From Candidatus Latescibacterota bacterium (GTDB lineage Bacteria; Latescibacterota; UBA2968; SICM01), in assembly GCA_965217865.1 (NCBI GenBank), contig CBDCJO010000002.1, forward strand, positions 3,616,001 through 3,680,000: a stretch of 64,000 nucleotides of DNA. Reading direction: 5' to 3'. The notes beneath the pieces are model-generated. The model did not search any database. It was not told where the DNA came from and worked only from the letters and a program-made list of their open reading frames with translations. Numbering within the stretch: the stretch's first letter is position 1; every line of letters starts with the position of its first letter. The position numbers were made by a program, and so were the translations under genes. Below, in pieces: positions 9,498 through 13,204 of this stretch.

Positions 9498-9586
9498 AAG
9501 AACCTTCCCGCCAGCTCTCCCGTAAACCATTCTAATATATTGTAATTAAATTTCTTATAGAAATTAAACCCGAGGCCCCTTTTTGC

Positions 9587-9615
9587 TTGACAAATGAACA
9601 AATGTTCACTAAATT
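9587..9615 (+). promoter_or_regulatory. Sigma-70 promoter with a LexA-type box (GAAC-AAAT-GTTC, 9596-9607) in the spacer
   Basis: TTGACA 9587-9592, 17 bp, TAAATT 9610-9615; palindrome TGAAC-AAAT-GTTCA; degenerate second site near 9624-9643. Confidence 0.75.
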
Positions 9616-9660
9616 GTAGACCCGAATAAGTGCTCAAACGTTCAGCTAAAGGGGCTGGTA

Positions 9661-10464
9661 TTGTCATCAAGGGATCTTCCGGCGAAGGAGTCATCGCCTT
9701 CAATCATACCCGGGCTTTCCGCTCACAAGGTGTCCTACCGAGAGGTGGTGAAAAGCTTTGAAGCGCCTTCGGGAAAAAATTTGTTGCTTTACGGGGACAA
9801 ACGGGTCTTCCGTCTGTCCCTCCATCTGGCCGTTCAGGCCATGGCCAGGGGAGCGACCATTGCCGTTGTGGATGGGGGAAATCAGTTTGAGGTCCACACG
9901 GTTGCGCGCCTGGCCAGGGAGCGACGCATCAACCCCGAGATTTTCCTCAACCGGATATTCATTTCACGGGGCTTTACGTGTTACCAGATGGAACAGGCCA
10001 TTACGAACCGGCTGCCGGGATTTTTGAAGCGTATCGATTCGAACATCGGGATGATTTTCGGCCTCCTGGATACCTTCTACGATGAGCAGGCACCCACGAG
10101 GGAAGTCCGAGGGATCCTTAAAAGGGTGATGAAGGCTCTGGAAAAGATGAAGAGAGAGGAACTCTCGGTTCTGCTGGCCTGCACCGAATACAAGGTCCTT
10201 CCCAGGGAAAGAAGGAATCTGTTCAAGGCCCTGAAGGAAGGGATCGACAAGGTTTATCACCTGACGGCCGACCCGGGGGGAAGTCCCAGGTCCGTCCTTT
10301 TACAGGAGTTTCCAACCAGGCATTCGCCTGGGCTTTTGCGGAAGGAGGTTGCCCCCGATGGGACGAACCGTTCCCACCTTCACGAACCTGATCGATTACG
10401 AAATGGCCAGCTGGTCGAAGTACCGACGAGGGCTTCGCAAGGAGGATCAGAGCCTATTCGATGA
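9661..10464 (+). CDS. Inactive RecA/RadA-like (iRadA, ImuA-analogous) protein
   Basis: Walker A degenerate (LLYGDKRVF); VVDGGNQF; IFISRGFTCYQM (RAFT-type); LLDTFYDE; first gene of the PolB2 operon. Confidence 0.75.
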   Translation: MSSRDLPAKESSPSIIPGLSAHKVSYREVVKSFEAPSGKNLLLYGDKRVFRLSLHLAVQAMARGATIAVVDGGNQFEVHTVARLARERRINPEIFLNRIFISRGFTCYQMEQAITNRLPGFLKRIDSNIGMIFGLLDTFYDEQAPTREVRGILKRVMKALEKMKREELSVLLACTEYKVLPRERRNLFKALKEGIDKVYHLTADPGGSPRSVLLQEFPTRHSPGLLRKEVAPDGTNRSHLHEPDRLRNGQLVEVPTRASQGGSEPIR

Positions 10465-10690
10465 TCTGTTTCGCGCTGCTAAACGCCACGTCGCTGAGAA
10501 CTTCTACATGATGCGGTCCATTCCATTCGAAAGCATCTCGATGGCGATGATGCTCGAACAGCGGAGACTGATCAAGTGTCTGGAGGACCGCGTGACAGAG
10601 CTGGATGATGCGCGGAAGGAAATTGCAAAATGGAAAGTGCAAAAGGAAGGGCCTGCCCATGTCGAATGTCATCACGGGCTGGCTGTTTGA
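10358..10690 (+). CDS. Small alpha-helical PolB2 partner protein (arCOG07300-like)
   Basis: MGRTVPT...W.KYRRGLRKEDQ.LFD.LF signature; ggagg RBS upstream; lies between iRadA and PolB2. Confidence 0.75.
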   Translation: MGRTVPTFTNLIDYEMASWSKYRRGLRKEDQSLFDDLFRAAKRHVAENFYMMRSIPFESISMAMMLEQRRLIKCLEDRVTELDDARKEIAKWKVQKEGPAHVECHHGLAV

Positions 10691-12998
10691 TGTTTATCCT
10701 TCGGCTCCGGGCACCACACTCTGGTTCATCGACCGGGAAGGCATCAAGCACCGCTGCTTCGCAAGATTCACGCCTTCATTTTATCTTTATCTGAGCGCCT
10801 CGGGGCAAAAGCGAGCGGAGGACCTTGGGGATCGTGCGCCTGCCCGAACCTCCTTTACGCGGGTATCTCGAAAGGAGCTTTTTTCCGGGAAATGGCTGGA
10901 CATCCTTCAGGTGACTGTACACGCCCCCAAGCGGTTCAGAGAGGTGGTGGCTTTTTACGAGAGGTTTTTTCCGCACTTCGCCTTTTTCAACTCGGATATT
11001 CCGGTTGCCCAGCTTTTTTTGTACGAAACCCAGCTGTTCCCCCTGGCCTTAGGGGAGTACGAAGTGGATGGCGCTGGAGAGCTCAAGGGCTGGACGGTTC
11101 ACGATTCCCGTGAAGCCGTCGAGTATGAGCTTCCCCCTCTGGAGATCATGGTGCTCCGGAACGCGAATGATTTCGTCCCTCCCAAGTACCAACCCCAGAT
11201 CCAGCTTGAGGTCTCCTACGAAGGAAAATCCTATCTGTTCGAGCACAATTCCTCCCTCGAAACCCTGGAGTCACTCAACGGACATCTCCGTCGATGCGAT
11301 CCGGATATCATTCTGACTGAGCACGGGGATGCGACCCTCCTTCCGAAGCTGACCGAACTCGCAAGGCGGCACAAGTTTCCCCTCCTGCTGAACCGAGATG
11401 CGTCAGCGGGATATGTGATCACACGGGAATCGAGTTTCTTCCAGTACGGCCAGGTCATCCACAAAGACGGCGCATTCGAACTCGCCGGTCGCTGGCATAT
11501 CGATGTGGGGAACTCTTTCACGGTGGCCGAGTCGGAGCTTGACGGCCTGTTTGAGATCATGCGGGTCACCCAGATGTGTCCCCAGAAACAGGCCCGGGCG
11601 AGCATCGGAACGGGGCTGGCCTCTTTGCAACTTTCGTGGGCACACCGGAACCGGGTCCTGATTCCATCGAAGAAACGTGAGCCGGAGGAATTCAAGTCAG
11701 CCGCAACGCTTCTAATGGCTGATCGGGGCGGGTTGATCTACCAACCCCCGAGGGGTTACCACGAAAATATCGCAGAGCTGGATTTTGTCTCGATGTACCC
11801 ATCGATCATGGTCAAGCACAACGTGTCACCGGAAACGGTCAACTGCCGTTGCTGTGAAAACAGCAACGTCCCGGAGCTGGGTTATACCCTGTGCGAAAGA
11901 CGCGACGGAATCGTGCGGGAGACCCTCAGGATGGTTTTGGAAAAACGGGCTTACTACAAAAAGATGAAAAGGAGATTCAAGGGGAAGGACGAAAAGCTAT
12001 TCCTTCGCTACGACAGGAGACAGGATGCCTTGAAGTGGATGCTGGTGACCTGCTTCGGTTATCTGGGCTACAAAAACGCCCGGTTTGGAAAGATTGAGGC
12101 CCACGAGGCCGTAAACGCCTTCTCCCGGGAAACGATCCTGAGGGCCAAGGAGATCGCCGAGGACCGCGGGTTCCAACTGGTCCACGCCATTGTAGACTGC
12201 GTTTGGCTTCGAAAGGAGCAGGCGACGGAGAGAGATTACGAGGAACTCTGCCGCATCATTTCCGAACAGGTGGGAATCGATATTTCCCTGGAGGGGATAT
12301 ACACCTGGATCCTTTTTCCGTCTTCAAAAATGGACCCTGTCTTAGCCACGGCCAACCGCTACGTGGGATGGTATCGCCACGGGGAGATGAAGGTTCGGGG
12401 GATCGAGGTCAGGCGTCGCGACACCCCCAAATTCATCAAAAAGATGCAGTCCGAGGTGCTGGACAGGATGGCAAAGGCCGGGAATAAGAGGGAACTGGAG
12501 AGGCTTTTTCCGGAGCTCCTGGGGACGGCCGGGGGATTTATCGAAGACCTTCAAAAAGGCCGGGTAAATCCCATGGAGCTGGTCCTTCGCCGGCGGGTCA
12601 CCAAGGAGGCCGACGAATACTTGAATCAGAGCATCAGCGCGGTGGTCTCGAACATGCTCGACGGGATGGGTCTACACCTTGCCGCGGGGGAGTCGATCGA
12701 TTTTATCATCATCGATCAATCCGGGAAGAGGGGAAGGGAGAAGGCCAAGCCTCTCGCACTCTATTCGTTCGAAGACGGGTATGATATCGAGAAATACACG
12801 GAGTTGGCTTTGAAAGCCCTGGAGACCCTGTTTCTTCCTATGGGCTACGACTTTGACAGGTTGAAACAGTTTTATAACCTCCTGCCCCAAAAAAGAATTC
12901 CAAGGCCAGAAGGACGTCAGTTCGACCTTTTCGATTCGAGCGCCAAACCCTCCCTGCTGAAGAATTGCAAAGTGGAAAATGAAAATTGCAGAATGTAA
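10659..12998 (+). CDS. polB2: B-family DNA polymerase, PolB2 group
   Basis: Motif A LDFVSMYPSIM, motif B KWMLVTCFGYLG, motif C HAIVDC (variant of YGDTDS), KVRGIEVRRRD; exonuclease motifs degenerate; ATG 10659 after ggaagg. Confidence 0.85.
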   Translation: MSNVITGWLFDVYPSAPGTTLWFIDREGIKHRCFARFTPSFYLYLSASGQKRAEDLGDRAPARTSFTRVSRKELFSGKWLDILQVTVHAPKRFREVVAFYERFFPHFAFFNSDIPVAQLFLYETQLFPLALGEYEVDGAGELKGWTVHDSREAVEYELPPLEIMVLRNANDFVPPKYQPQIQLEVSYEGKSYLFEHNSSLETLESLNGHLRRCDPDIILTEHGDATLLPKLTELARRHKFPLLLNRDASAGYVITRESSFFQYGQVIHKDGAFELAGRWHIDVGNSFTVAESELDGLFEIMRVTQMCPQKQARASIGTGLASLQLSWAHRNRVLIPSKKREPEEFKSAATLLMADRGGLIYQPPRGYHENIAELDFVSMYPSIMVKHNVSPETVNCRCCENSNVPELGYTLCERRDGIVRETLRMVLEKRAYYKKMKRRFKGKDEKLFLRYDRRQDALKWMLVTCFGYLGYKNARFGKIEAHEAVNAFSRETILRAKEIAEDRGFQLVHAIVDCVWLRKEQATERDYEELCRIISEQVGIDISLEGIYTWILFPSSKMDPVLATANRYVGWYRHGEMKVRGIEVRRRDTPKFIKKMQSEVLDRMAKAGNKRELERLFPELLGTAGGFIEDLQKGRVNPMELVLRRRVTKEADEYLNQSISAVVSNMLDGMGLHLAAGESIDFIIIDQSGKRGREKAKPLALYSFEDGYDIEKYTELALKALETLFLPMGYDFDRLKQFYNLLPQKRIPRPEGRQFDLFDSSAKPSLLKNCKVENENCRM

Positions 12999-13204
12999 AA
13001 TTAGAGTCTCCGTCGGCTCGAAACCTGAACAGGTAGATTAGCCGACCAACCTGGGACATGCTCCACTTCAGACGCCCGTCGCAGTCACCTGTGATGGGCG
13101 TTGCCATTTCCGGGAGGCTTGCAAAAACCCCATCTCTCTATTATATTGGCATAATCTGTGGAACCGTCGCGCCGGGATCCAAGGGGGACAGGTACTAAGA
13201 AGGA

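Follow-up and report, generated by a model that had tools for sequence, protein, structure and literature searches.

The three-gene iRadA-PPB2-PolB2 operon was described in 2014 (Makarova et al., PMC4104785) and 2025 (Timinskas et al., PMC11791011), and both papers already propose a damage-response role and report lexA adjoining, and enriched near, bacterial PolB2 operons. The MGRT motif of PPB2 and a PolB2-iRadA-PPB2(3) complex are given in PMC11791011, and extender activity has been shown for archaeal Dpo2 only (PMC8764526; PMC11791011). The LexA box of Gram-positive bacteria is CGAAC-N4-GTTCG (B. subtilis, S. aureus; PMC9578287 Table 1), and Bacteroidetes use non-canonical CI-like LexA proteins with the motifs GGA-N5-TCC and CTAA-N5-TTAG (Sanchez-Osuna et al. 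2021, PMC8565304). Here, we analyzed an iRadA-PPB2-PolB2 operon and its promoter in a 64,000-nt stretch from the genome of an uncultured, marine-type Candidatus Latescibacterota bacterium (GCA_965217865.1, contig CBDCJO010000002.1, positions 3,616,001-3,680,000, forward strand; hereafter, the window, whose own numbering is used for the locus).

The operon is likely repressed by the canonical LexA of its host and expressed after DNA damage, and it would then make a predicted proofreading-free, lesion-extending complex; we assign this reading a probability of roughly 0.8. The protein system is known, and what is new is a modest regulatory detail. Given that the capture of error-prone polymerases through shifts in SOS regulators is well documented (PMC8565304, PMC7739468), the locus is a neat example rather than a surprise to the specialist.

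Promoter of the operon and predicted LexA box of the host

The operon promoter reads TTGACA-AA-TGAAC-AAAT-GTTCA-C-TAAATT, and the promoters of host lexA (TTGACA-AA-TGAAC-TCAT-GTGCA-G-TATATT) and host recA (TTGACA-TA-TACAC-TTTT-GTTCA-G-TATATT) carry a site in the same slot. Together with the intact lexA gene, this shared slot supports the LexA control of the operon that an earlier note on this DNA had proposed, and the comparative evidence as a whole makes such control very probable. The GAAC-AAAT-GTTC core (9596-9607) that the note had placed between TTGACA and TAAATT, with a 17-nt spacer, lies as described and was refined to a 14-bp palindrome. The note had also read this core as a literal Firmicute-type GAAC-N4-GTTC box and expected it before lexA, recA, and uvrA, which holds in part: a variant occupies the same promoter slot at lexA (one mismatch) and recA (two mismatches), the perfect form is absent there, and neither of the two uvrA genes has a site. 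The box is a lineage variant, TG[AC]AC-N4-GT[GT]CA, so a scan for perfect GAAC-N4-GTTC would miss both lexA and recA. We regard this variant as the predicted LexA operator of the lineage, close to but distinct from the Gram-positive box. The weaker second site of the note is present as well, with 9/10 half-site letters and a position weight matrix score of 10.6 (vs 16.8 for operator 1), although it is better read as 9631-9644 than as 9624-9643; a second site also lies downstream of many lexA promoters.

The host genome (6.43 Mb in 2 contigs, 96% complete, 9.3% contaminated; coordinates prefixed G000 refer to it) encodes an intact RecA and an intact canonical LexA (G000:C1:228967-229596; PF01726 and PF00717), in which Ala94-Gly95, Ser129, and Lys166 are present and the recognition region is ASTNGVRTTLSAL. 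The closest match of this LexA is a Candidatus Handelsmanbacteria protein (76%), followed by Latescibacteria- and Gemmatimonadota-labelled records (60-65%), which makes the host a likely Latescibacterota. The lexA gene is unlinked to the operon and lies on the other contig (C1) of the assembly. Another lexA-like gene (G000:C2:1834761-1835481) is frameshifted and without a host-type site upstream, and was for these reasons dismissed as the regulator; it sits in a phage-like or integrative and conjugative element-like region and adjoins a recombinase-type gene.

Genome-wide, sites matching at least 9/10 letters were found at the operator offset in 5 of 1130 promoter-like sites, compared to a mean of 0.13 (maximum 2) at 119 other offsets. 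A search for the full layout returned six sites, namely lexA, recA, a radical SAM gene (Pfam Radical_SAM, probably SplB-like), this operon, and two sites without a clear downstream gene. A seventh site, which came up with a slightly different pattern, is a perfect box in a promoter-like site before a histidine kinase gene (HisKA and HATPase_c; G000:C2:4076821-4076849, - strand). When a matrix was trained on the lexA, recA, and radical SAM sites only, the polB2 site received the top score, which is common to 14 positions of 6.43 million, most of them copies of a repeat.

Two simpler searches were discarded. Bare GAAC-N4-GTTC failed as a regulon finder, with 115 genome copies (91-293 for other spacer lengths), no enrichment, and neither lexA nor recA among the matches, and ranking by the naked 14-bp palindrome was dominated by a 22-copy repeat. 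This dispersed palindromic repeat, presumably REP-like (after repetitive extragenic palindromes), has at least 22 copies (e.g., G000:C2:2354065, C2:5016326, and C1:23443), is often preceded by GTAG, and is often paired at distances of 100-800 nt. Its center, AATT-TG[AC]AC-N4-GT[GT]CA-AATT, is a perfect match to the predicted LexA box, and the repeat could titrate LexA or match by coincidence.

Other boxed promoters and repair genes of the host are recorded here as separate observations. The boxed promoter at G000:C2:2040629 (+) has no clear sense open reading frame (ORF) downstream, and similar orphan boxed promoters in both same-family genomes (L184 and L186) face the 3' end of a convergent gene; a small RNA or an antisense transcript is possible in these cases. 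A duplicated segment of ~200 nt (G000:C1:639569, - strand, and C2:1029503, + strand) contains a boxed promoter with an ORF that is short or broken, and is apparently a mobile-element remnant. One of the uvrA loci (G000:C2:4386990-4392755) has two full UvrA matches in a single 1954-aa frame (a fused double UvrA), and a second, shorter uvrA lies at G000:C2:4637696. In the window, no Rfam match was found. Strain differences near the operon promoter, among those listed, fall at 9579, 9620, and 9660, outside both sites, and were not used as evidence. A 9.7-kb contig of another study spans phyH through polB2 with 141 differences.

Predicted LexA box across the class

To describe the box beyond the host, lexA promoters were aligned on their -35 and -10 boxes only, using the host's locus and the 30 best-scoring loci from relatives (of 60 relatives, 57 had a match; 18 of the 30 loci belong to one genus). 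The pattern TG[AC]AC-N4-GT[GT]CA is present in 30 of these 31 promoters exactly and in all 31 within one mismatch, covering ten genera, and seven operator positions are invariant across one lexA promoter from each of the ten. The outer bases are T/A in 31/31 promoters, and GCAC or GTGC variants occur in most. Among the best 30 recA loci in relatives, 13 have a promoter-embedded site by a strict rule. The full pattern was found in 107 of 168 genomes of the phylum (104/132 of the class and 3/36 others; reversed control, 0), a search that is partly circular in that the pattern was derived from the same sites. No published report of this Latescibacterota box was found in the literature covered, from which subscription journals are largely absent. 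The Fibrobacter LexA box is probably TGCNC-N4-GTGCA.

An improbable alternative is that some regulator distinct from LexA binds the palindrome, or that the palindrome belongs to a promoter class, and that lexA, recA, and polB2 are co-regulated in this way. In six relatives, sixteen full-pattern sites are followed by a radical SAM gene, by genes for a sigma-70 paralogue, an HD-domain protein, or small proteins of unknown kind, or by no clear gene, and the sigma-70, HD-domain, and small-protein cases would suit such a regulator. However, the rigid 5-N4-5 palindrome recurs at 31/31 lexA promoters and is close to CGAAC-N4-GTTCG (PMC9578287), and the combination of lexA, recA, a radical SAM gene, and an error-prone polymerase is the core SOS regulon of PMC7739468; both points argue for LexA. 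As to the boxed genes themselves, in several families of the class the sigma-70 paralogue has a predicted LexA box before it (L187, L190, L193, L195, and L196), and small proteins of 95-140 aa that follow a strong predicted box in four relatives (L182, L188, L191, and L197) are candidates for unnamed SOS genes.

Several results nevertheless weigh against LexA control of the operon. Three strong host sites have no recognizable repair gene downstream (the histidine kinase site and the two without a clear ORF), no box was found at the host promoters of both uvrA genes, uvrB, and recN, and dinB has only a 9/10 site that lies 257 nt upstream, outside its promoter. By the same strict rule, no promoter-embedded site was seen at 17 of the 30 recA loci of relatives (many of them from a family with two recA genes), and the host-type site was found at 0/17 dnaE2/imuB cassettes and 0/12 dinB-type loci of the class. 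Mutagenic polymerases are therefore not under LexA control as a general rule in the lineage. Not every lineage requires a LexA motif at uvrA, uvrB, and recN (PMC3091678).

The host has one DnaE gene and one Y-family gene (DinB), neither of them in the operon, and no ImuB-DnaE2 cassette was found when its DnaE and Y-family genes were counted. Two or more DnaE-family matches occur in 25/60 relatives. PolB2 may fill the place that is held by DnaE2 cassettes elsewhere in the class. In many relatives (L159-L171), the dnaE2-type gene is followed by a Y-family gene and has neither a preceding imuA-like ORF nor a host-type box. Most genomes of one family of the class (f2) carry two full-length recA genes.

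Probable origin of the cassette and the donor-type operator

Related operons share the promoter layout of the host and carry another palindrome, TTGAC-N4-CGACA-N4-TGTCG. The search for related loci, which kept the best 80 of 128 matches and reaches close relatives only, gave 63 closest loci among species genomes, of which 61 are titled Ignavibacteria/Bacteroidota and 2 are unlabelled. Excluding 17 loci without an iRadA match in the locus sequence and 2 with <350 nt upstream, 44 loci remained; within 2.5 kb upstream of iRadA, CGACA-N4-TGTCG was found at 34/44 and a weak host-type match at 1/44. Thus, the host motif that was expected at orthologous polB2 promoters is absent from them, and the different palindrome in its place points to rewiring rather than chance. 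Taken literally, this absence is one of the outcomes that the note had named as refuting its proposal.

Five Ignavibacteria/Bacteroidota genomes were compared for their repressors. None of the five encodes a canonical LexA over the family cut-off, and all five encode an HTH_3 + S24 repressor, whose own gene has CGACA-N4-TGTCG upstream in 4/5 stretches. The repressor gene lies inside 23 of the 63 related loci. No donor-type site was found in the Ignavibacteria recA promoters (5/5), so the HTH_3 + S24 repressor seems to run a small regulon. The host-type site has 4 one-mismatch matches in these five genomes, compared to 6 control matches. Conversely, the donor-type repressor was not found in the host genome, and no remnant of the donor palindrome is present near the host promoter (best match, 3 mismatches of 10).

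On balance, we lean towards a transfer, in which the PolB2 cassette crossed from Ignavibacteria/Bacteroidota into one Latescibacterota lineage without the phage-CI-like repressor and CGACA-N4-TGTCG was swapped in the same slot for TGAAC-N4-GTTCA, the operator of the canonical host LexA, which differs from that repressor in structure. The PolB2 core and PPB2 profiles were each found in 1/168 phylum genomes, the host itself (52 of the 168 reach 90% completeness with contamination of 5% or less). Of two same-family genomes, one (G002) has an upstream block that runs 41 nt later into another phyH gene, with no cassette, and in the other (G001) the contig ends at that point. Full-length identity of PolB2 is 65-69% to the Ignavibacteria/Bacteroidota loci, compared to at most about 45% for other full-length clusters, and exceeds the RecA identity between the same lineages (59-64%). 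In phylogenetic trees, the host polB2 falls inside Ignavibacteria/Bacteroidota: it belongs to a group of 16 rows with 100/99 support, and of the two Bacteroidota rows that branch outside this group, L049 carries the donor-type operator. The host site may have been remodelled from the donor site or may have arrived with a host promoter; these two routes cannot be told apart.

Three results do not fit a transfer of this kind easily. In approximately unbiased (AU) tests, which used a hand-picked subset of full-length loci with unnamed and distant outgroups, placing the host gene outside Ignavibacteria/Bacteroidota was not rejected (p 0.49 in a quick analysis with 29 rows; 0.069 in a more careful one with 22 rows). 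The composition of polB2 (GC 0.547; GC at third codon positions 0.687) gives no sign of recent import when set beside the genome (0.563 and 0.655), and any transfer is therefore old enough to have been ameliorated. The supplement of PMC11791011 lists one operon from a genome labelled Candidatus Latescibacterota (HCP99714.1), a different protein, so that the cassette is not unique to the host genome under the NCBI label, and other acquisitions or label differences exist.

These AU results and the ameliorated composition, together with the long branch to the host polB2 (0.35-0.44), the missing donor palindrome, and the limited reach of the locus search, would also suit a history in which the operon is LexA-controlled but is either ancestral to the host or derived from some third lineage that was not sampled, with separate origins of both operator types and no Ignavibacteria-type swap. 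We consider this history unlikely, if the most serious of the alternatives, for it has to accommodate a cassette confined to 1/168 phylum genomes, a host gene placed inside the 100/99 group with a donor-type operator even at the outside row L049, and a PolB2 identity above that of RecA.

That the operon is contaminating Ignavibacteria DNA with a chance motif match is hardly credible, and this explanation is largely refuted. Its starting points are the contamination figure of the bin and the position of lexA on the other contig. The genes upstream of the operon are, however, 70-76% identical to those of two same-family genomes, and the 90% clusters of PolB2 and LexA both have members in other assemblies on contigs of identical length (5,782,071 and 5,461,225 nt); the operon thus belongs to the host chromosome. 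The 9.7-kb contig of the other study likewise spans phyH through polB2, and the promoter has the host-type, not the donor-type, site.

Operon proteins and comparison with known systems

The operon is a standard iRadA-PPB2-PolB2 operon of type 1a, with matching gene order and co-orientation (Table 1). The earlier note had identified it as the PolB2 trio from three overlapping genes encoding a RecA-fold protein without the Walker A lysine, an MGRTVPT protein, and a B-family polymerase with motif C HAIVDC and eroded exonuclease motifs. All of this was recovered: there are three overlapping + strand ORFs of 267, 110, and 779 aa, and they have the defining features of the system. The mutasome idea and the link to lexA, which the note had put forward as inference, are both already published (PMC4104785, PMC11791011).

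Table 1 Predicted features of the PolB2 operon and its promoter (positions in the window)
Feature	Position	Strand	Description
-35 hexamer TTGACA	9587..9592	+	predicted operon promoter
Predicted LexA operator 1, TGAAC-AAAT-GTTCA	9595..9608	.	fills promoter spacer, 2 nt after -35 box
-10 hexamer TAAATT	9610..9615	+	17-nt spacer
Predicted weaker LexA operator 2, TGCTC-AAAC-GTTCA	9631..9644	.	downstream of predicted transcription start
iRadA	9661..10464	+	RadA/Rad51 fold, without Walker A GKT
PPB2	10358..10690	+	arCOG07300-type small helical partner, MGRT arm
PolB2	10659..12998	+	family-B polymerase, 779 aa, decayed exonuclease domain
FKSA...DRGG loop	11691..11732	+	aa 345-358; predicted iRadA-binding segment, then D(K/R) motif
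Motif C variant HAIVDC	12183..12200	+	aa 509-514; first Asp of DxD lost, second kept
QFDLF	12918..12932	+	aa 754-758; predicted beta-clamp binding motif near PolB2 C-terminus

The iRadA gene presumably starts at a TTG codon after AAAGGGG. Its product has a RadA/Rad51 fold (AlphaFold predicted local distance difference test score, 80; profile match to RadA, E 1.8e-5), with RadA, Dmc1, and Rad51 as best Foldseek matches (E 3e-10 to 2e-9); residues beyond about 220, which overlap the PPB2 frame, are of low confidence. In an alignment, YGDKRVFRL replaces the P-loop that in host RecA reads YGPEGSGKT, and iRadA has neither an N-terminal domain nor an ATPase active site, as in type 1a operons. PPB2 begins MGRTVPT, with GGAGG 9 nt upstream of its start, and its gene shares 107 nt with iRadA and 32 nt with polB2; the MGRT of PPB2 is invariant in 19/19 aligned homologues. 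PolB2 gave DNA_pol_B as its only Pfam result, with archaeal-type models matching best and no exonuclease family match in the Pfam search. The FKSA segment of its loop is presumably of the FxxA type. An iRadA-binding role of such a loop segment is taken from PMC11791011, which also gives QLxLF as the canonical clamp motif. QFDLF is retained in the homologues P0009 and P0013 despite differing tails.

Two further sequence features of these genes were noted. The C-terminal tails of both PPB2 and PolB2 are encoded by a short tandem repeat of the AAAATG[CG] type (10620-10645 and 12963-13002), which is frequent genome-wide and varies in copy number between strains, as shown by a 14-nt insertion at 10633 in the contig of the other study. 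In distant PolB2 relatives of 950-1300 aa (P0142, P0153, P0174-P0176, P0187, and P0189), the match is interrupted at about residue 466, the pattern expected of an intein inserted in motif B.

Loss of the first Asp of motif C raises the question of activity. The complex might be damage-induced without being a translesion polymerase, with PolB2 acting as a scaffold of little or no activity in fork rescue or recombination; activity of a bacterial PolB2 was not found in the literature covered, and inactive-polymerase roles have been proposed (PMC4104785). We nonetheless judge a scaffold quite unlikely, as motif A Asp375 and motif C Asp513 are invariant in 66/66 aligned PolB2 rows and Sulfolobus Dpo2, with the same motif C lesion, is an active extender (PMC8764526).

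Under LexA control of an active polymerase, a LexA dimer bound in the spacer, with support from the weaker operator downstream, would block RNA polymerase. After damage, RecA-stimulated self-cleavage of LexA (Ala94-Gly95, Ser129, and Lys166) would free the promoter, and one PolB2, one iRadA, and a PPB2 trimer could then assemble and load on the beta-clamp via QFDLF, as published models suggest. PolB2 would extend mismatched or lesion-paired primer ends, as known from archaeal Dpo2, perhaps after host DinB has inserted a base. The cassette would have arrived from Ignavibacteria/Bacteroidota minus the CI-like repressor, the donor operator being replaced by the host LexA operator.

The locus adds operator-level evidence for SOS control of a bacterial PolB2 operon with lexA unlinked; in the passages of PMC4104785 and PMC11791011 covered, no operator-sequence analysis was found, and 'promoter' gave 0 matches in PMC11791011. 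The predicted Latescibacterota LexA box offers a way to chart damage responses across an uncultured class, and the host and donor-type promoters form a matched pair from two phyla that is testable with two purified repressors. If the proposed history is true, donor and recipient together document in nature a change from one repressor class to another, and an unrepressed bacterial PolB2 complex would appear to be costly, an indirect sign of an active mutator. The same reading, if true, would also define an unpublished SOS box and a small core regulon (lexA, recA, and the SplB-like gene) of the whole uncultured class.

Compared to the published PolB2 mutasome of type 1a, the operon has the same gene order, MGRT arm, ATPase-dead RadA fold, IxD-type motif C, D(K/R) loop, decayed exonuclease, and C-terminal clamp motif. 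It differs from published PolB2 operons and their lexA neighbourhood in that lexA is unlinked here, the shared operator pointing to the control, and in that, among the genomes searched, no other member of the host phylum has the cassette.

The operator resembles the Gram-positive (Cheo) box in its 5-N4-5 palindrome, its GAAC/GTTC core, and its canonical LexA (winged helix-turn-helix and S24), whereas it differs in the outer T/A, in the A or C at the third position (TGAAC/TGCAC), and in its fixed position 2 nt after the -35 box. The donor side recalls the CI-like LexA of Bacteroidetes: the likely donor lineage has no canonical LexA (0/5), and an HTH_3 + S24 repressor is tied to error-prone polymerase genes. 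However, its Ignavibacteria motif CGACA-N4-TGTCG is unlike the Bacteroidetes motifs, and the host is without this repressor; Ignavibacteria are not mentioned in the passages of PMC8565304 covered. Finally, the locus would parallel ImuA-ImuB-DnaE2 and Pol V (UmuD'2C-RecA) in that a putatively LexA-repressed, error-prone polymerase is joined to a clamp motif and a partner of RecA fold. It is distinguished from both by its catalytic subunit, which belongs to family B and is archaeal in origin, by a partner predicted to be a helical trimer, and by a complex in which a Y-family subunit and an S24 cleavage step are both missing.

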